From assembly GCA_965223505.1 (NCBI GenBank), contig CBDCWP010000040.1, forward strand, positions 160,001 through 224,000: a stretch of 64,000 nt of DNA, in the 5' to 3' direction. Of the stretch, positions 29,057 through 33,962 are shown piece after piece (within the stretch, counting starts at the first letter, position 1; each line of letters starts with the position of its first letter). The stretch is from Planctomycetota bacterium (GTDB lineage Bacteria > Planctomycetota > PLA2 > JAEUHO01). The notes below the pieces were generated by a model, which was not told the origin of the DNA, searched no databases, and saw nothing but the letters and a program-made list of their open reading frames with translations. Both the position numbers and the translations under genes were made by a program.

Positions 29057-30490
29057 CTAGTCTTCACCCTCGAGCGATCTGATCAGCTCGTCCGCGGCGG
29101 CCCTGAGCTTCTCCGGAAGGGCGTCCCGCAACCGGCGCAGGTTCGGAAGCAGCGCCTTGTCGTCGAGCTCACGCGCCAATTCGAGCAGTTCCGTGAGTCG
29201 GCGCTCGTCGTCGGACTCGATGTCCCATCCGACCAAACGTCCGAACAGGATCTGGCGCTTCGTGCCCGACGCCGACTTGGCGGCATCGACGAGAGTGAAG
29301 CGACACTCGGTCCAGTTGCCTTCGACGGCCATCTTGGCCGCGGCGCCGACCAGCGTAGTGTCCGACGAGTCGAGCGCCGCACGCCAGCGTTTGCGCGCCT
29401 CGCTCTCGTCGCCGCCACGCAGCATGTGCAGCGCATAGAGCAGGGAACGAGCGTCGTCCAGCGTGTCGTTCGCGAGCCGCTCGCGAGCGAACGCGACGGT
29501 CTCCTCGGAGGGCTCGACCGAGACGATCAAGACGCGCTCGACCTCGGCGGAGACGCCCGCCTCGATGGCGTCCATCGCAAACTCTGCGAAGTCCTCGGGC
29601 GGGAGCTGGCTCTTGAGGCAACCAAGTGCCGATTGCTTGACGTTGGCCGCGGCGTCGCCGGTCACGATCTTCGCGACGGCATCCCTGTGCTCGAAGTCCG
29701 GCGCGTAGCCTAGGCCCTTCAGAGCCGAGAATCGAATCGTGTCATCGGCGTCGTTGATGTACGGCGCGAACACCGCAGCGCAGACCGACCCCTCATGGGC
29801 CGCCGCCTGCATCGAAAGCCCGCCCAGCACCTTCTGCAGCGTCGCGACGCGGCGCTTCTCCCGCGCCTCGAACAACACGCGCGCGACGTCGCCGTCGGAC
29901 GCCGTCTCGATGACCGAGTCGATGTCCTCGTCCCACCCCTGGGCCAGCAGGCGCTCGGCGACCGTGGTCTCCACCGGGATTCCGCTGTACGTCAGACACT
30001 CGAAGGCGGTCTTGCGAACGAGCGTGGACGGATGCTCGAGCGCTTGCTCGAACTCGCTCCGAAGCGCCGGGTCGTTCTTCAGCCGCTCGTAGTCCGGCTT
30101 CGAGGCGCCGAACTCACCGAACACGAGCTCGTTGAGGTACGCGGCGTACTCCACCGAGCTTCGAACGGCGCCGGTCTCCGGCGTCGGCTTGAAGTACGCG
30201 AACAGCGCGAACGCGACGACGAGCACAGCGGCCGCCGCATAGGCGAAGCCACGCCGGCGCATCGCAACCCGTCGCTGCGCGCGCCCGAAGATGGCCTCCG
30301 CGCGCGCTTCCGAGATCGGCTCCACGACGGAGGCCGCGCCGCGACGCATGTCCTGGATGGACCGCCGTGCGGACTCGCAGTGCGCACAATCCGAGAGGTG
30401 CGCGAGGCTCTTCGCGTCGAGCTCCGCTTCGTCGATCAGACGGCGGAACACGATGTCGCATTGCTGGGACACGTCATGCGTCATCGCCAT
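29057..30490 (-). CDS. Anti-sigma factor (ZAS-like HxxxCxxC, TM helix, HEAT repeats)
   Basis: AHLSDCAHC; TM AAAAVLVVAFALFAYF; overlaps the ECF gene. Confidence 0.8.
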   Translation of the reverse strand: MAMTHDVSQQCDIVFRRLIDEAELDAKSLAHLSDCAHCESARRSIQDMRRGAASVVEPISEARAEAIFGRAQRRVAMRRRGFAYAAAAVLVVAFALFAYFKPTPETGAVRSSVEYAAYLNELVFGEFGASKPDYERLKNDPALRSEFEQALEHPSTLVRKTAFECLTYSGIPVETTVAERLLAQGWDEDIDSVIETASDGDVARVLFEAREKRRVATLQKVLGGLSMQAAAHEGSVCAAVFAPYINDADDTIRFSALKGLGYAPDFEHRDAVAKIVTGDAAANVKQSALGCLKSQLPPEDFAEFAMDAIEAGVSAEVERVLIVSVEPSEETVAFARERLANDTLDDARSLLYALHMLRGGDESEARKRWRAALDSSDTTLVGAAAKMAVEGNWTECRFTLVDAAKSASGTKRQILFGRLVGWDIESDDERRLTELLELARELDDKALLPNLRRLRDALPEKLRAAADELIRSLEGED

Positions 30491-31130
30491 CCCCTTTCCG
30501 CATGTCGCGCAGTCGGCGAAGGCCCCGGCTCAATCGCTGATACACGGCGGCCGCGGAGACCGAGTGCAGCTTGGCGATCTCCGCGGGCGATACGCCGTAG
30601 GCGAAGTGCAGAACGACGGTCTGTCGTTCCGCGTCGGGCAGCTTCTCCACACCCTTCCAGGCGTTCGGCGCCTCGGCGGGCGAAGTCCACGCGCCTTTGC
30701 CATGTTGCGTCTCGCCGAGCAGCTCCGGACGGCGCTTGCGAAACTGATCGCGGCCGACGTTCTTGCAGATCACGACGAGCCACGGTGTGACGGCTCGGGC
30801 CGCGTCCAGCTTCCTGTGAGCACGGAACGCCCGGAACCAGGTCTCGCCGACCACCTCGTCGATCTGCGCACCGCGCGCCCCGGCCGCGAGCGTGATGTAC
30901 TCGAGCAAGGGTTGCAGGCATCGGACGAGCAAGGTCCAAGCTGGTGGTTCTCCTTTACGCAGGCGGTGCCGAAACGCGGGGGTTTCGATTTGGCTGCAAT
31001 CGGACCTACCTCCGCCACCCGTTGGGGCAGCGGAATCGGTCAGCGGTTGCCCGGCGTTTCCTTCGCTTCCTTCGCGCTTTCCCAGCGCATCTCCGTCGGA
31101 AGTACGATTCTGGCCCCCGGGCTCTGACAT
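30474..31130 (-). CDS. ECF RNA polymerase sigma factor
   Basis: WLVVICKN..RD.FRKR (region 2); LPDAERQTV..SPAEIA..VYQRLSRG (region 4); start uncertain. Confidence 0.85.
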   Translation of the reverse strand: MSEPGGQNRTSDGDALGKREGSEGNAGQPLTDSAAPTGGGGRSDCSQIETPAFRHRLRKGEPPAWTLLVRCLQPLLEYITLAAGARGAQIDEVVGETWFRAFRAHRKLDAARAVTPWLVVICKNVGRDQFRKRRPELLGETQHGKGAWTSPAEAPNAWKGVEKLPDAERQTVVLHFAYGVSPAEIAKLHSVSAAAVYQRLSRGLRRLRDMRKGDGDDA

Positions 31131-31173
31131 GGATTGTGAGACTAATGTGCGGCGGGCTGCAGAGCCCTAGTTT

Positions 31174-31248
31174 TGGCTGCTCCGAGAGGGTTCGAACCCC
31201 CACCCGCCGGTTCAGAGCCGGCGATGCTACCGGTTACACCACAGAGCA
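31174..31248 (-). tRNA. tRNA-Gln(CTG)
   Basis: Cloverleaf; GCCGG-CTCTGAA-CCGGC; encoded CCA. Confidence 0.9.
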
Positions 31249-31256
31249 GCGGCGGC

Positions 31257-31331
31257 TGGTGCTCCGAGAGGGAGTTGCACCCCCATCGCGGGATTCGTAG
31301 TCCCGAATGCTGTCTGTTACACCATCGGAGC
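31257..31331 (-). tRNA. tRNA-Arg(ACG)
   Basis: CGGGA-CTACGAA-TCCCG; T-loop TGCAACT; CCA. Confidence 0.85.
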
Positions 31332-31335
31332 TTGT

Positions 31336-31413
31336 TGGGGTGAGCGACGGGACTCGCACCCGCTTGCCCCGGCGTCACGGGCCGGGTCCTCGACGACTTC
31401 GGAATCGCTCACC
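31336..31413 (-). tRNA. tRNA-His(GTG), atypical
   Basis: G-1:C73 pair; CCGGC-CCGTGAC-GCCGG; T-loop TGCGAGT; CCA. Confidence 0.8.
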
Positions 31414-31420
31414 AGGAAAC

Positions 31421-31497
31421 TGGTAATCCCGGCAGGAGTCGAACCTGCAACTTCCGGTTTCTGAAACCGGCGCCTCTGCCAGTTGGGCTACGGGATC
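31421..31497 (-). tRNA. tRNA-Leu(CAG) with short variable loop
   Basis: CCGGT-TTCAGAA-ACCGG; 5-nt variable region; CCA. Confidence 0.85.
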
Positions 31498-31506
31498 TCG
31501 AGAAAA

Positions 31507-31576
31507 TGGGGCCCACGGGAAGACTCGAACTTCCGTCCGCTCTTTACGAGAGAGCATCTGCGCCTTGCGCGCGGGC
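31507..31576 (-). tRNA. tRNA-Thr(CGT) with truncated D-arm (possibly pseudo)
   Basis: GCTCT-CTCGTAA-AGAGC; T-arm GGAAG-TTCGAGT-CTTCC; only 70 nt; CCA. Confidence 0.65.
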
Positions 31577-31584
31577 TCGTTGAA

Positions 31585-31660
31585 TGGCTGGCGCGGTCGG
31601 ATTCGAACCAACATGGTCCCGGTCAACAGCCGGGCGCCTTACCAGATCGGCCACACGCCA
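31585..31660 (-). tRNA. tRNA-Asn(GTT)
   Basis: CCCGG-CTGTTGA-CCGGG; U1:A72; CCA. Confidence 0.88.
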
Positions 31661-31661
31661 T

Positions 31662-31735
31662 TGGTACCGGGCCACGGAGTCGAACCGCGTAGGTCGGGGT
31701 CATGAGCCCCGCCGGAGACCGTCTCCACGCCCGGG
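31662..31735 (-). tRNA. tRNA-Met(CAT), initiator-like
   Basis: C1xU72 mismatch; CGGGG-CTCATGA-CCCCG with consecutive G:C pairs; unusual D-arm; CCA. Confidence 0.78.
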
Positions 31736-31736
31736 T

Positions 31737-31813
31737 TGGTGTCTCGAGGAGGCCACGATCCTCCATCTCACGGGGTAAGAACCCGGCGCTCTGCCCACTT
31801 GAGCTATCGAGAC
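31737..31813 (-). tRNA. tRNA-Lys(CTT)
   Basis: CGGG-TTCTTAC-CCCG; normal D-arm; T-loop ATCGTGG; CCA. Confidence 0.8.
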
Positions 31814-31821
31814 GTGTTGTT

Positions 31822-31898
31822 TGGCGCGAACGACGAGACTTGCACTCGCTTCCTTCGGCTCGACAGGCCGACGTCTCGTCTCCTTCGACTTCGTTCGC
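31822..31898 (-). tRNA. tRNA-Asp(GTC), atypical
   Basis: TCGGC-CTGTCGA-GCCGA; G73; T-loop TGCAAGT; CCA. Confidence 0.8.
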
Positions 31899-31900
31899 AT

Positions 31901-31977
31901 TGGTACGGACGACGAGACTCGCACTCGCTTACTCCGGGTTGAGGGCCCGGCGCCTCGGCTTCTTCGGCTTCGTCCGC
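31901..31977 (-). tRNA. tRNA-Glu(CTC), atypical
   Basis: CCGGG-CCCTCAA-CCCGG; T-loop TGCGAGT; CCA. Confidence 0.8.
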
Positions 31978-31987
31978 AAAGGTTCGC

Positions 31988-32062
31988 TGGTCAGGGTGGG
32001 AGGACTCGAACCTCCGTCTGCCTGCCTCCGAAGCAGGCTGTCTGCCGCTGACGTACACCCTG
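31988..32062 (-). tRNA. tRNA-Pro(CGG)
   Basis: C1:G72, A73; CCTGC-TTCGGAG-GCAGG; CCA. Confidence 0.88.
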
Positions 32063-32074
32063 AAAGTTGATTGT

Positions 32075-32149
32075 TGGACCACTCGGTGGGATTCGAACCC
32101 ACGCCTCCACGATGGCACCGTGGTGTGCTGCCGCTGACACCACGAGTGG
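32075..32149 (-). tRNA. tRNA-Gly(GCC)
   Basis: CCACG-GTGCCAT-CGTGG; U73; CCA. Confidence 0.86.
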
Positions 32150-32150
32150 T

Positions 32151-32224
32151 TGGTTCCGCGAGACGGAGTCGAACCGTCGTCCACCGGATTTCACCCGGTC
32201 GCTCTGCCGTTGAGCTATCGCGAC
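32151..32224 (-). tRNA. tRNA-Phe(GAA)
   Basis: ACCGG-GTGAAAT-CCGGT; 1:72 mismatch; CCA. Confidence 0.85.
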
Positions 32225-32226
32225 GT

Positions 32227-32297
32227 TGGCACGCGCCCACGGAGTCGAACCGCGCCTCCGGGGGTTGGAGCCCCGTGCGCCCCAAGGCGTAGCGCGT
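32227..32297 (-). tRNA. tRNA-Trp(CCA) with minimal D-loop
   Basis: CGGGG-CTCCAAC-CCCCG; G73; 71 nt; CCA. Confidence 0.78.
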
Positions 32298-32411
32298 GCG
32301 TGTCTAGTGTCTGACTTGGAGATACCAAAGAGCGGAGCGCTCGAAGGCACGGCGGTCTTCGGTCGCGAAATGGGGATCGGACGAGACGATTGGCGACGCC
32401 AAATCGAGTCC

Positions 32412-32518
32412 GAAGGGGGCGTCCCCCTCTTCAAAGAGACGGGACGCGTCTAGGCGAACAGATTGAGATTCGCGAGACCGCGCGGTTCACCGAACCGACG
32501 TGCGCAGCCTCGCCACAT
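32412..32518 (-). promoter_or_regulatory. Candidate leader peptide and alternative hairpins upstream of the tRNA array
   Basis: GAGGG-N4-ATG, 22-aa ORF (32518-32450) followed by overlapping hairpins at 32446-32412. Confidence 0.35.
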
Positions 32519-32690
32519 ACCGCCCTCGAGGACGATCGCGGGCTCCGGCAAATGGCGGCGCAGACAGATCACGAGAGCTACGACGCGCGCCACGTCCGAC
32601 GGGTTCCGTCGAACCGAACCCAAAAAGCGGTTCGCCCTCCGGATCACCGTACCGCTACCATGTCGCGCCGCACCGCTGCGAGGTCGCGTC

Positions 32691-33962
32691 TTGGAATGGA
32701 AACTGACATTGGACGTTCGATCGGGACCCGATGAGGGCCTGCGGTTCCAATACGTCATCAGGAGTGAGATCGTCTTCGGGCGCGAGGGCGAGAAGGACGC
32801 CGAGGGACTGCGCCCCTCCGACCTGCGCGTCAGTCGCAAGCACCTCACCCTCGCGCCCGACGAGGCCGGTGTGAAGGCCGCAATGCTCAGCTCCCAGCGC
32901 AGATTTCTTCACAACGACCGCAAGGTGGGGGAAGCAACGCTCGTCGACGGCGATCGCATCCGCTTGGGCGCCAGCACCTATGCCGTCGCTCTGCGACGCA
33001 TGGGCCGCGACGACGAGGAAGGACCCGACCCGACGGCACTCGCCGCCGAAACGACAACCGACAACATCACGGTCAACGCGCTGAGCGATCTCGAGCTGCT
33101 GGATGAGATCGGCCGCGGGGCCATGGGCCGGGTGTTGCGAGCGCGCGACAAGGCAGGGCGAAACCTGTGCGTCAAGCTCGTTCGTCAAGACTTCAGCGAT
33201 CCCAAGTCCACGGATGCCATCGTCCCCTTCTTTCTGCGCGAAATGGACCTGCTCGGCGCGCTCGTCCATCCCAACATCGTGCGCACGCTCTACGCCGGCC
33301 CTGCGGAGGGCGAGATGTACCTGGGGATGGAGTGGGTCGACGGGCGTAACCTGGAGCAGGAAGTGACGGTCGCCGGCAAGCTCCCGCTGCTGGACGGGTG
33401 CGCCGTCGGACGACAGCTCCTGAGCGCGCTGGTGTGTGCCCACGAGCACGACGTCGTTCACCGCGACGTGAAGCCCGACAACGTCATGATTCGCGGCGAA
33501 CGGGGCGCATTACACGCGATCCTGATCGATTTCGGCCTCGCTCGCATCGTCGGCGAGGCCGGTGACGAGGGTCTCACGGCGACGGGCGAGGCGCGTGGGT
33601 CCTACGCGTACTCACCGCTCGAGTGTCTGGCTGACGCCAAGCGTGCGAAACCACCTGCGGATCTGTTCGGCGCCGCGGCAACGCTCTACTTCGCGCTGAC
33701 GGGCTCGCCCTACTACGACGAAGAGCTCGCCGCGCAGGGGATGCCCAACGTGTTCGGCGGGAAGAGCATCGTCCCGCTTCGCGAGCGCCGCGACGACGCG
33801 CCCGAGAGTCTCGCAAGGGTGATCGAGAAAGGGCTCGCGATCGAGCCTGAAGATCGGTGGTCGTCAGCGGCGGAGATGCTCGAGCGCCTGGTCGTTGCGG
33901 AAGGGGAAGTGCTGCGCGCCTCCGCCAATACCAGTGAAGCTGCGAAGGGCGTTCAGCGATAG
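32691..33962 (+). CDS. FHA-domain Ser/Thr protein kinase
   Basis: FGR..VSRKH (FHA); GRGAMGRV, VKL, HRDVKPDN, DFG; TTG start uncertain. Confidence 0.88.
   Translation: MEWKLTLDVRSGPDEGLRFQYVIRSEIVFGREGEKDAEGLRPSDLRVSRKHLTLAPDEAGVKAAMLSSQRRFLHNDRKVGEATLVDGDRIRLGASTYAVALRRMGRDDEEGPDPTALAAETTTDNITVNALSDLELLDEIGRGAMGRVLRARDKAGRNLCVKLVRQDFSDPKSTDAIVPFFLREMDLLGALVHPNIVRTLYAGPAEGEMYLGMEWVDGRNLEQEVTVAGKLPLLDGCAVGRQLLSALVCAHEHDVVHRDVKPDNVMIRGERGALHAILIDFGLARIVGEAGDEGLTATGEARGSYAYSPLECLADAKRAKPPADLFGAAATLYFALTGSPYYDEELAAQGMPNVFGGKSIVPLRERRDDAPESLARVIEKGLAIEPEDRWSSAAEMLERLVVAEGEVLRASANTSEAAKGVQR

Follow-up and report, generated by a model that had tools for sequence, protein, structure and literature searches.

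The DNA analysed here is a stretch of 64,000 nt (the window) from a Planctomycetota MAG of 5.15 Mb, in which positions 31174-32297 are filled by 14 head-to-tail tRNA genes on the minus strand (1,124 nt, 12.5 genes per kb). All 14 genes have an encoded CCA, the spacers between them measure 1-12 nt and the gene order is Trp(CCA), Phe(GAA), Gly(GCC), Pro(CGG), Glu(CTC), Asp(GTC), Lys(CTT), fMet(CAT), Asn(GTT), Thr(CGT), Leu(CAG), His(GTG), Arg(ACG), Gln(CTG). The units are listed below with their diagnostic bases and gene calls:

32227..32297, minus strand: tRNA-Trp(CCA), 71 nt, short D arm, A8, G73; called by ARAGORN, no Rfam match
32151..32224, minus strand: tRNA-Phe(GAA), A73, G1xA72 mismatch; ARAGORN and Rfam (49.4 bits)
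32075..32149, minus strand: tRNA-Gly(GCC), U73, C1-G72; ARAGORN and Rfam (50.8 bits)
31988..32062, minus strand: tRNA-Pro(CGG), C1-G72, A73; ARAGORN and Rfam (51.5 bits)
31901..31977, minus strand: tRNA-Glu(CUC), A8, C33, T loop UGCGAGU; Rfam (44.3 bits), no ARAGORN call
31822..31898, minus strand: tRNA-Asp(GUC), A8, T loop UGCAAGU, G73; Rfam (50.5 bits), ARAGORN at lowered threshold
31737..31813, minus strand: tRNA-Lys(CUU), T loop AUCGUGG, A73; ARAGORN and Rfam (49.0 bits)
31662..31735, minus strand: initiator-like tRNA-Met(CAU), C1xU72 mismatch, three G-C pairs beside the anticodon loop, A73, G8, small D loop; ARAGORN, no Rfam match
31585..31660, minus strand: tRNA-Asn(GUU), U1-A72, G73; ARAGORN and Rfam (56.0 bits)
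31507..31576, minus strand: tRNA-Thr(CGU), 70 nt, short D region, C8, C73; read by hand
31421..31497, minus strand: type I (short variable loop) tRNA-Leu(CAG), A73, D arm GUAGCCCAACUGGCAGAGGC; ARAGORN and Rfam (59.6 bits)
31336..31413, minus strand: tRNA-His(GUG), encoded G-1, C73, A8, C33, T loop UGCGAGU; ARAGORN
31257..31331, minus strand: tRNA-Arg(ACG), T loop UGCAACU, A73; ARAGORN and Rfam (52.5 bits)
31174..31248, minus strand: tRNA-Gln(CUG), U1-A72, G73; ARAGORN and Rfam (50.0 bits)

With default settings, ARAGORN called all units except Glu, Asp and Thr (11 of 14), and the Rfam model RF00005 at its gathering score accepted all but Trp, Met, Thr and His (10 units, 44.3-59.6 bits), so that most units were not rejected by the covariance model and 13 were recognized by the two tools combined. 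When Rfam was run at E<=10 on 1.8 kb, there was still no tRNA match for Trp, Met and Thr, and the His unit matched tRNA-Sec only, at 28.7 bits, which is under the threshold of that model. The 14th unit, Thr(CGU) at 31507-31576, was identified by manual reading of the sequence, which gave an acceptor stem of 7 bp, an anticodon stem of 5 bp with loop CUCGUAA, a T stem of 5 bp with loop UUCGAGU and a D region of 14 nt; its homologues in four related arrays were called Thr(CGU) by default ARAGORN. An earlier sequence-only reading had described 14 tandem minus-strand tRNA genes with this order, strand, anticodons, CCA ends and spacers, and all of this agrees with our analysis, as does its observation that no amino acid is repeated and that position 34 is C, G or A, which is true of all 14 units. 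The array stretch was also contiguous, and identical, when checked against contigs assembled independently from a public run (a 13,890-nt record with 0 differences over 30400-33000), a run that may be the MAG's own source. A look-up of sequencing runs that contain the stretch listed no RNA run, and the four runs used were contig sets.

We compared the array with the housekeeping tRNAs of the genome. Whole-genome ARAGORN yielded 66 calls, of which 55 lay outside the array and included all 14 array anticodons on dispersed genes, and for every array anticodon such a gene scores higher against the covariance model. Since all 14 anticodons are duplicated elsewhere, the array is accessory, as had been proposed from the sequence, and it is not the sole copy of any isoacceptor. 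The units share 43-75% identity with their housekeeping cognates and score 44-60 bits where the type I housekeeping genes mostly score 60-75, from which it follows that they are not recent duplicates. Every anticodon reads the top or co-top codon of its own amino acid (for Leu, CUG at 0.41 and CUC at 0.42), which bears out the suggested match to G/C-ending codons. The accompanying idea of a set that needs no U34 modification fails as a design rule, as related arrays contain U34 units, Gln(UUG) in the case of G001 and Ala(UGC) in that of G003; the bias towards C34 and G34 and the lack of U34 are explained by the choice of top codons in a genome of 66% G+C. Ala and Val, the two most abundant uncovered amino acids, are absent from the array, which is unexpected for a simple boost of supply.

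The units depart strongly from the canonical tRNA build and have builds in common with phage tRNAs, two features overlooked in the sequence-only reading. Leu(CAG) lacks the long variable arm, three units have short D arms and Asp, Glu and His have an odd build of the D and T loops. Rules that are near-universal among tRNAs are broken, with U8 absent in 6 of the 14 units, C33 in place of U33 in Glu and His, and G in place of U55 in four T loops; non-canonical elbow (D/T-loop) features were found in 5 units, and the anticodon loops are mostly ordinary. The predicted helices carry compensatory changes in 6 of 24 pairs for Leu, 8 of 18 for Thr (4 sequences), 10 of 21 for Trp, 9 of 21 for Gly and 6 of 21 for Gln. 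Array and housekeeping genes were compared in 13 type I pairs, and the discriminator base agreed in 12, Thr being the exception; in this comparison His, which had been misparsed, was taken from its sequence, and the type I Leu was left out, but its A73 is as in housekeeping Leu. Other identity marks are also kept, namely U1-A72 in Gln, C1-G72 in Pro, G-1 and C73 in His, and C1xU72 with three G-C pairs in Met, whose 1x72 mismatch is the same as that of the housekeeping initiator-like gene C8:25992. The compensatory changes and the retained identity elements argue that the array tRNAs are likely to work. The missing U8, the C33, the G at position 55 and a changed Pro anticodon in the related genome G017 are consistent with some decay. 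This G017 Pro unit carries the anticodon CGC, and a near-identical metagenome copy carries CGG.

In the Leu(CAG) unit, manual reading located A73, A14-A15, the D-loop GG and U48, whereas the long variable arm of bacterial tRNA-Leu is lacking. The set described for E. coli tRNA-Leu comprises A73, A14, A15-U48 and the G18G19 elbow contacts, and in one published test, as described, most of the bacterial LeuRS enzymes tried did not charge a type I tRNA-Leu (PMC6614811). The open-access literature yielded the term 'type I tRNALeu' only in this Streptomyces paper. By its description, the type I tRNA-Leu(CAA) of Streptomyces coelicolor (Fan et al. 2019, PMC6614811) resembles the array unit in having a Leu anticodon, a short variable loop and an ordinary type II tRNA-Leu and LeuRS alongside. 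It is an essential housekeeping tRNA with A73 unused by its LeuRS, whereas the unit studied here is an accessory copy of a phage-spread build in which A73 is kept.

The type I Leu build was found to recur in phage tRNA-Leu genes and in other planctomycete genomes. Five different Leu anticodons occurred in 79 of 86 viral matches and a Leu anticodon in 9 of 9 planctomycete matches, and A73 was present in 68 of 68 distinct viral sequences. The array Leu(CAG) is 81% identical to a phage type I tRNA-Leu, with which it has an exact 20-nt D arm in common. We also considered an origin of this unit from tRNA-Arg(CCU), DNA matches to which exist in many genomes and whose copy in the same genome is 77% identical, but the D arm differs and the phage Leu family is closer. 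The build of Asp and His with T loop UGCRAGU likewise recurs in viral contigs, and the viral contigs that carry either build often hold clusters of 14-22 tRNA genes. No viral match was obtained with exact patterns of the Asn and Pro units, and none of the other array units exceeded 79% identity with the 432 viral tRNAs in the comparison. The unusual builds in common with phage tRNA clusters point to a probable mobile or phage ancestry.

Homologous arrays were present in 6 of the 29 genomes of the family, distributed over 4 of 16 genera, and in two metagenome contigs, while a third contig has only the Asn unit in common; Asn is the best conserved unit between arrays (83-89% identity). The related arrays vary in content, with truncated duplicate 3' halves and one decayed unit, and each has different neighbouring genes (tblastn; Pfam of neighbours), none of the window's 11 flanking proteins having a match beside them in tblastn at E<=1e-5. 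An array of 23 tRNA genes in G051, a genome of the same phylum, proved to be of a different kind, with U34 tRNAs, no ECF motif and, by eye, TTGACA-N17-TAGAGT.

The neighbourhood of the array contains two genes in the same orientation:

30474..31130, minus strand: divergent ECF-type sigma factor gene (Sigma70_r2, r4_2; TIGR02937 at 46.7 bits, cut-off 42.9)
29057..30490, minus strand: HEAT-repeat protein gene, overlapping the end of the sigma gene by 17 nt

The sigma gene starts 43 nt past the last array tRNA, with no terminator-like site between them on that strand, and it is possibly co-transcribed with the array. No orthologue was detected in 60 relatives at E<=1e-15; in five array-bearing relatives the best matches were just 27-35% identical, and G026 had none at E<=1e-6. 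The gene raises the question of autoregulation, as it follows the array on the same strand, yet it has no orthologue in related genomes and is therefore not the conserved regulator of the motif that these arrays share upstream. The proteins of relatives closest to the HEAT-repeat protein were at most 31% identical, and an anti-sigma role for it is only a guess. As neither gene has close orthologues in relatives, the insertion site is not reconstructable. The 12-13 flanking ORFs (Pfam, PHROGs) contained no RtcB, TROVE or phage structural genes, in line with the sequence-only reading, and no homing endonuclease genes; phage structural, integrase and lysis genes were absent from the flanking ORFs at E<=1e-5. 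The G+C content of the array is similar to that of the rest of the window.

Upstream of the array, the following elements make up a putative control region:

32603..32607, minus strand: GGAAC, the -35-like part of an ECF-sigma-type motif, the sole such motif on this strand in 31100-32750
32583..32585, minus strand: CGT, -10-like, 17 nt past GGAAC, with the same spacing ahead of the arrays in G001, G017/L024, G026, G028 and L026
32567..32573, minus strand: conserved CGTGAYC box close to where transcription is expected to start; the leader ORF opens with its GTG
32450..32572, minus strand: possible leaderless leader ORF with GTG start, 40 codons and TAG stop; weak coding signature
32419..32447, minus strand: GC-rich hairpin directly past the leader ORF stop, followed by CCCCUUC

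The hallmarks described for ECF promoters are AAC at -35 and CGT at -10 (PMC8103513), and the minus strand at 32607-32583 has an AAC-containing -35 and a CGT -10 at the spacing of about 16-17 nt; the GGAAC is intergenic if the kinase gene starts at 32691. Of 8 independent array heads, 6 have GGAAC-N17-CGT at a distance of 179-310 nt upstream of their first tRNA, against a background of 0.036-0.039 matches per 450 nt and a single occurrence ahead of 52 housekeeping tRNA genes. Together with the CGTGAY box, the motif lies ahead of arrays at six loci (TGTGA in M3) and of a second tRNA locus of G001, and it is conserved while the leader sequence around it has diverged. This conservation lends indirect support to the earlier claim that the array is inducible. 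A seventh match (G003a, N16) falls within a gene and probably arose by chance, and neither of the two G003 arrays has a convincing motif. A scan for sigma-70-type sites gave 0 promoter-like sites and 2 terminator-like sites with 1.8 expected, and hence nothing usable. In the open-access literature searched, no ECF-type promoter motif ahead of a tRNA array is on record, and we regard it as new.

When the CGTGA box is included, the composite motif has only 10 occurrences on the two strands of the present genome (G000) and 24 in five relatives, where 5 of the 24 are directly ahead of accessory tRNA genes; through it a previously unrecognised locus with Ile(GAU) and Asp(GUC) was located (G001:C98). 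Twelve other strict or looser composite matches were examined for a regulon in G000, of which 11 look like chance, lying inside or antisense to genes, and the remaining one lies ahead of a secreted-looking protein of 679 aa; no ECF gene follows any of them. The motif was also absent within 450 nt upstream of all 86 other ECF sigma genes of G000, for which reason its action as an ECF promoter there remains putative.

An ORF of 36-46 codons that starts at the CGTGAY box occupies the same place at 7 of 7 promoters, and the leader ORF is rich in codons read by the array tRNAs. Similar post-stop hairpins exist in G017, G026 and G028, where compensating changes were noted by eye, and the hairpin at 32419..32447 is a possible candidate for an attenuator or a processing element. 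Leader-peptide transcription attenuators control amino-acid operons, and the arrangement resembles them in having a short upstream ORF enriched in codons served by the operon products and then a hairpin. Unlike in such attenuators, the leader region showed neither an alternative antiterminator pairing nor a U-tract terminator, and the ORF would be leaderless, with a GTG start and a weak coding signature.

Among known systems, the locus comes closest in description to the L-arrays, which are reported as supernumerary, horizontally spread and stress-induced in Anabaena, as poorly transcribed elsewhere, and as present in several phyla including the Planctomycetes (PMC8421152). It has one orientation with short spacers, supernumerary genes and a patchy occurrence with unshared flanks and builds common to viral contigs. 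Judged by these features, the locus belongs to the known L-array kind, as an accessory array restricted to a few genera of one Planctomycetota family. With the trn operon that Anabaena PCC 7120 carries, as described (Santamaria-Gomez et al. 2021, PMC8421152), it has in common the dense, same-strand, supernumerary genes that are isodecoders rather than new anticodons, a patchy distribution suggesting horizontal transfer and a likely conditional use. It differs in size, its 14 genes comparing with 23-26 for Anabaena and as many as 43 elsewhere, and in its anticodons, which match top codons, whereas the Anabaena study as reported found no link to codon usage (PMC8421152). The co-regulated RtcB and homing endonuclease genes of the Anabaena type are both missing beside this array, and its control would rest on an ECF-sigma-like promoter rather than on a repressor, TrcR being the repressor described for the trn operon (PMC10272220). 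The tRNA array units, defined as at least 20 tRNA genes at a density of at least 2 per kb and reported in a few Planctomycetes (Tran et al. 2016, PMC4758250), are alike in density and redundant isoacceptors, but 14 genes are fewer than 20; tRNA arrays have been described in Mycobacterium as well (PMC5966550). Phage tRNA clusters have like builds, but this array is without phage structural, integrase or lysis genes nearby.

We consider it probable that the locus is a chromosomal accessory L-array of mobile or phage ancestry, which would provide a conditionally expressed second supply of translating tRNAs under an alternative sigma factor. The 14 genes would probably be transcribed as a single precursor, driven by the ECF-sigma-dependent-looking promoter about 285 nt upstream and perhaps continuing into the ECF sigma gene 43 nt past the last tRNA, and RNase P with 3' trimming would release the tRNAs. 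The array would be switched on when the alternative sigma factor is active, as may happen under stress, and its tRNAs, with their identity marks kept, would be charged with amino acids and would read the commonest codons in translation. It is unlikely, in our estimate, that the locus works beyond this as a self-sensing emergency circuit, in which translation of the leader ORF would gauge the supply of array tRNAs and set the output of the spare set, coupled to the alternative sigma factor. The ECF-type promoter would then start a leaderless transcript whose first 36-46 codons are largely those read by array tRNAs, and the hairpin past the leader stop would set how much of the structurally divergent, perhaps toxin-proof, tRNAs is made.

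A rather unlikely alternative is that the array supplies toxin-proof spares, or decoys, against tRNA-cutting or tRNA-modifying toxins of competitors, toxin-antitoxin systems or defence; the altered bodies of its tRNAs would evade or soak up the enzymes under an envelope-stress sigma switch. It would account for bodies only 43-75% identical to the housekeeping cognates with identity marks kept and for the builds in common with phage clusters, since phage tRNAs have been proposed to evade host tRNA-targeting defences (PMC10264068); mycobacterial arrays have been termed putative anti-defence systems (PMC12803027), a sponge role has been proposed for the Anabaena operon (PMC8421152) and the ECF-type motif would link expression to stress. 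However, no tRNase, toxin or defence gene occurs in the ORFs beside this or the related arrays, the anticodon loops are mostly ordinary, and decoys would not need a perfect match to the top codons. A silent, slowly decaying remnant of a phage or mobile-element tRNA cluster with no present function is, in our view, distinctly unlikely: compensatory changes maintain the helices across genera, the oddest units included, anticodons and identity marks are retained, many phage contigs likewise conserve the odd builds, and the promoter-like motif persists amid a diverged leader. Such a remnant would agree with the low covariance scores (4 of 14 units under the Rfam threshold), the loss of U8 in 6 of 14 units and C33 for U33 in 2, the variable content, truncated 3' halves, decayed unit and G017 anticodon change of related arrays, the patchy presence in 6 of 29 genomes and the poor transcription reported for L-arrays elsewhere (PMC8421152). 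Donation of amino acids outside the ribosome, for example in cell-envelope, lipid or peptide natural-product synthesis, appears highly improbable; the non-canonical elbows of 5 units could reduce ribosome use and non-translational roles have been raised for arrays (PMC8421152), but the coverage of 14 amino acids including an initiator-type Met with top-codon anticodons points to decoding, and no transferase, cyclodipeptide synthase or similar gene lies beside any array. A housekeeping cluster with the sole isoacceptor copies is refuted by the dispersed, higher-scoring genes for all 14 anticodons, and 23 of 29 family genomes lack such an array.

The non-standard builds, i.e. the Leu without a long variable arm, the Trp and Thr with shrunken D arms and the Asp, Glu and His with altered elbows, would represent conserved mobile designs common with phages and not products of decay, and they bear on which features are truly needed by synthetases and the ribosome. 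Several of the odd units escape default gene finders, which bears on the annotation of tRNAs in metagenomes. Accessory arrays are known, but Anabaena is essentially the sole organism in which their control has been elucidated. The array family in uncultured Planctomycetota, with its shared control region, makes it testable that an alternative sigma factor, and perhaps a leader ORF, turns on a second tRNA set; the sensing circuit, if true, would mean that tRNA genes are feedback-controlled by their own decoding capacity and tied to an alternative sigma factor. A planctomycete may thus keep a second, conditionally used set of tRNAs under an apparent stress-type promoter.

The array exists as the sequence-only reading had described it: the order of the 14 tRNA genes, their anticodons, the encoded CCA ends and the spacers of 1-12 nt were as listed there, 13 of the units being called by ARAGORN and Rfam combined and the remaining one, Thr(CGU), being read manually. 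The features concerned are the following.

31174-32297, minus strand: array of 14 tRNA genes
31507-31576, minus strand: Thr(CGU), by manual reading of the sequence
30474-31130, minus strand: divergent ECF-type sigma gene, starting 43 nt after the last tRNA
32607-32583, minus strand: GGAAC-N17-CGT motif, by motif search

ARAGORN at default settings called 11 tRNA genes on the minus strand and left Glu, Asp and Thr uncalled, and the Rfam tRNA model placed 10 units above its gathering score (44.3-59.6 bits) with Trp, Met, Thr and His uncalled. In a permissive Rfam scan of 1.8 kb, Trp, Met and Thr still gave no tRNA match and the sole match of the His unit was a sub-threshold tRNA-Sec (28.7 bits), while lowering the ARAGORN threshold gained Asp and misread the Thr region. 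The manual reading of Thr(CGU) shows a regular T arm, an acceptor stem of 7 bp and the loop CUCGUAA on the anticodon stem, and its homologues in four related arrays were called by ARAGORN at default settings. A public run contains a contig of 13,890 nt in which the array stretch is unbroken and identical; this run may be the source of the MAG itself.

Of the 66 ARAGORN calls in G000, the Planctomycetota MAG that carries the window (5.15 Mb in 44 contigs, 92% complete), 55 lie away from the array, and all 14 array anticodons were found among these dispersed genes. The array units share only 43-75% identity with their housekeeping cognates, and in the whole-genome Rfam scan the 10 scoring units reached 44-60 bits against mostly 60-75 for housekeeping genes of type I (short variable loop). 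As every anticodon occurs elsewhere and both identity and bit scores are low, the array is redundant and not a recent copy of host genes, in agreement with its earlier description as accessory. Encoded CCA is not specific to the array: most of the housekeeping Leu and Arg genes inspected carry it as well, and the 16 housekeeping cognates that were parsed had been picked for this ending. Outside the window G000 also encodes odd, low-scoring tRNA-like genes with no encoded CCA (C14:20044-20181, C32:21514-21587 and C32:29178-29250). The first is an adjacent pair, one member having a shortened anticodon loop; the others are a unit of 74 nt that lacks the long arm despite its Ser GGA anticodon, and a second Ala(UGC).

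Several units depart from the canonical tRNA build. U8 is absent in six of the 14 (A8 in Trp, Glu, Asp and His, G8 in Met and C8 in Thr), the acceptor-to-anticodon stem distance of Thr(CGU) is only 14 nt, and Trp, Thr and Met have 14-17 nt versus the usual 18-20. The T loop reads UGCRA instead of UUCRA in Glu, Asp, His and Arg and AUCGUGG in Lys, and C33 occurs in Glu and His. Leu(CAG) of the array has 77 nt with a variable loop of 5 nt, and the housekeeping Leu(CAG) of G000 has 87 nt. More than 124 viral contigs contain the 20-nt sequence that forms the D arm of the Leu unit (GTAGCCCAACYGGCAGAGGC); in the 80 viral loci taken, 79 of 86 matches lay in tRNAs of 74-78 nt with one of five Leu anticodons, the other seven being one TTA and six uncalled, and A73 was found in all 68 distinct viral type I Leu sequences. 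The pattern occurred in 11 of 401 sampled Planctomycetota genomes (reversed control 0), and outside the array family all nine planctomycete D-arm matches were in short tRNAs with Leu anticodons. As the anticodons of the two Leu codon boxes have only the amino acid in common, these matches are good indirect evidence that the build would be leucine-specific.

The viral loci L034-L113 and the Planctomycetota loci L158-L169 form a widespread family of type I tRNAs of 74-78 nt with an invariant D arm and A73, and in phage clusters with short Leu tRNAs the Ser and Tyr genes retain long arms. G163, another genome of the phylum, has a 16-tRNA array in which a unit with a CTA anticodon by ARAGORN (L167:637-712, amber-reading 'Pyl' label) sits among four short Leu-type tRNAs. 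A bacterial precedent for type I tRNA-Leu is described in Streptomyces coelicolor, and the other bacterial LeuRS enzymes tested are reported to have left it uncharged (PMC6614811). A search of the open literature for 'type I tRNALeu' yielded nothing beyond the Streptomyces case.

The T arm of the Asp/Glu/His build matched 25 viral loci, of which ~18, by manual reading of contexts, were of Asp(GUC) or His(GUG) type with the same D arm; ARAGORN called five of the 25 by default and six more at a lowered threshold. The Asp/His(/Glu) build (window 31336-31413 and 31822-31977; viral L170-L194) combines A8, the D arm CGAAG...GUCGAG and the T loop UGCRAGU. The remaining array units reached at most 79% identity to the 432 viral tRNAs compared. 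As judged from sequence, the odd builds are conserved designs and not decay.

Compensatory changes in the array units
Leu: 6/24 pairs
Thr: 8/18 predicted pairs (4 sequences)
Trp: 10/21 pairs
Gly: 9/21 pairs
Gln: 6/21 pairs

These two-sided changes show selection on the array genes that maintains their helices. The marks by which synthetases would be expected to recognise the tRNAs are kept as well. Array unit and housekeeping cognate have the same discriminator base in 12 of 13 type I pairs, where His, misparsed in the comparison, was taken from its sequence and the type I Leu stands outside the 13; the exception is Thr (C vs U). The type I Leu has A73 as in housekeeping Leu. Gln carries U1-A72 and G73, Pro C1-G72 and A73, His an encoded G-1 opposite C73 and Thr G1-C72 and C2-G71, and Met has a C1xU72 mismatch, as in the initiator-like gene of the genome, and three G-C pairs adjoining the anticodon loop.

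When 60 relatives, and subsequently every one of the 29 family genomes, were searched at the DNA level, homologous arrays were found in five further genomes (G001, G003, G017, G026 and G028), which with G000 makes 6/29 family genomes and 4/16 genera; the same search gave no array in several nearly closed genomes of the family. The exact pattern of the Asn unit matched the same five relatives among 185,579 species genomes, three metagenome contigs and no viral contig. The gene order, whose recurrence in relatives had been proposed as a check, was retained in part: the core Gly-Pro-Lys-Asn...Arg...Gln recurs but the content overlaps and varies, with Gln(UUG) present in G001, Ala(UGC) in G003 and Ile(GAU) in G028. 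By tblastn at E<=1e-5, 11 flanking proteins of the window were without any match next to the other arrays, the neighbours of which are unrelated enzymes. The 12-13 ORFs on either side of the array in the window include no member of the RtcB, TROVE, integrase or phage structural families, as the earlier reading had remarked for RtcB, TROVE and phage genes; several FHA- and kinase-domain genes lie around it. An ABC-F type ATPase gene (L013:7770-9659, minus strand; two ABC_tran domains, ABC_tran_Xtn and ABC_tran_CTD) adjoins one array only, that of G001, with which it is convergent, ending 1 nt from the last tRNA. ABC-F proteins work on stalled ribosomes.

Long gaps inside related arrays (L016:1843-1985, L016:2062-2202, L017:2850-2987 and L026:950-1072) contain a conserved GC-rich hairpin (GCGCGCGAGCCGGYGAGCGCGC-like) and then a second copy of the 3' half of the tRNA before the gap (Asn or His), a pattern that resembles insertion of a small element into the tRNA 3' half or recombination there. 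The array of G017 and its metagenome copy are near-identical (97.8% identity over 450 nt upstream) with unlike anticodons in a Pro-type tRNA (L015:578-654 vs L024:1331-1407), the metagenome copy having CGG and G017 having CGC, which puts an Ala codon reader on a Pro body and is either an anticodon shift or an error. G051, of another family of the phylum, has a different array of at least 23 tRNAs (L018:3745-8362), preceded by TTGACA-N17-TAGAGT; its genes include U34 tRNAs, Leu and Ser tRNAs of type II and one unit whose anticodon is a Tyr ATA.

Using codon usage from 2,011 long, high-GC3 ORFs, each array anticodon was matched to the top codon of its amino acid, CUG of Leu (0.41) being co-top with CUC (0.42) and ACG of Arg, read as inosine, covering CGC at 0.56, which upholds the proposed match to G/C-ending codons. 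The further proposal of a set that needs no U34 modification was not supported, since U34 units are present in the arrays of relatives and, at 66% genomic G+C, top-codon choice by itself restricts the set to C34, G34 and A34. The array leaves unserved Ala, which makes up 11.6% of residues, and Val, with 8.0%, so that a pure supply boost is a poor fit.

No sigma-70-like promoter was found for the array. As GGAAC-N17-CGT was seen upstream of two related arrays, it was sought before the others; G000, G001, G017, G026, G028 and the metagenome locus L026 have it 179-310 nt upstream of their first tRNA, as does the metagenome contig that is nearly identical to G017. Of the two array heads of G003, G003b has no match upstream and G003a has an N16 variant inside a gene, probably by chance. 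Against a background of 0.036-0.039 matches per 450 nt, five of six heads with the motif give a binomial P of ~5e-7 by hand, a value which relatedness inflates and which leaves out the two pattern-suggesting arrays and includes the probably chance match of G003a. The leader sequences around the motif are no longer alignable among arrays. The motif precedes one of 52 housekeeping tRNA genes and is missing before the unrelated 23-tRNA array of G051. According to PMC8103513, ECF sigma promoters are characterised by AAC at -35 and CGT at -10. The motif of the window falls between genes provided that the start of the FHA-kinase gene is 32691 and not 32463; in the longer frame, the initial 79 codons have a non-coding look. 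The CGT is followed, 9-10 nt on, by another conserved box, CGTGAY. Together they form a composite motif with 10 occurrences in G000 (both strands) and 24 in five relatives; five of these 24 directly precede accessory tRNA genes, one of them a previously unsuspected locus, G001:C98, with Ile(GAU) and Asp(GUC) of odd build.

The GTG within the CGTGAY box starts an ORF of 36-46 codons ending in TAG in all seven promoters, four of whose leaders are mutually related; for CGTGA sites drawn at random from the genome, the probability that four draws agree in length to within 10 codons is ~0.001. The tRNAs of the following array read 130 of 271 leader codons (48%), against 29% for G000 genes and 21% (113/527) for the other two frames of the same DNA, and all seven leaders exceed both controls, that of G000 only slightly. 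At the amino-acid level the share is ~57% (hand-corrected, G026 Thr gene removed) vs 37% and 35%. The pooled GC by codon position (0.66/0.59/0.70) is far from that of the genome's genes and counts against coding, and no attenuator-type alternative pairing was found in the leader; a GC-rich hairpin lies 3' of the stop codon. A leader ORF is possible on these grounds.

The end of the neighbouring sigma gene is overlapped by a HEAT-repeat gene, and, on mixed evidence, the arrangement resembles an ECF operon under its own control whose leader contains the array, with read-through from the array into the sigma gene being possible. As no orthologue was found in 60 relatives and the best matches in the five array-bearing genomes have 27-35% identity (none in G026 at E<=1e-6), a conserved factor that reads the shared motif cannot be this sigma. 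The motif was found upstream of none of 86 other ECF genes of G000. By the TIGR02937 cut-off the genome encodes ~87 ECF-type sigma genes, many of which are part of very long fused ORFs.

Arrays in Planctomycetes are on record in two papers (PMC4758250, PMC8421152), and the present one is a real accessory array of this known kind, the function of which we infer from sequence. What it adds are non-canonical tRNAs of phage type, a control region of ECF type that is conserved, and possibly a leader ORF.
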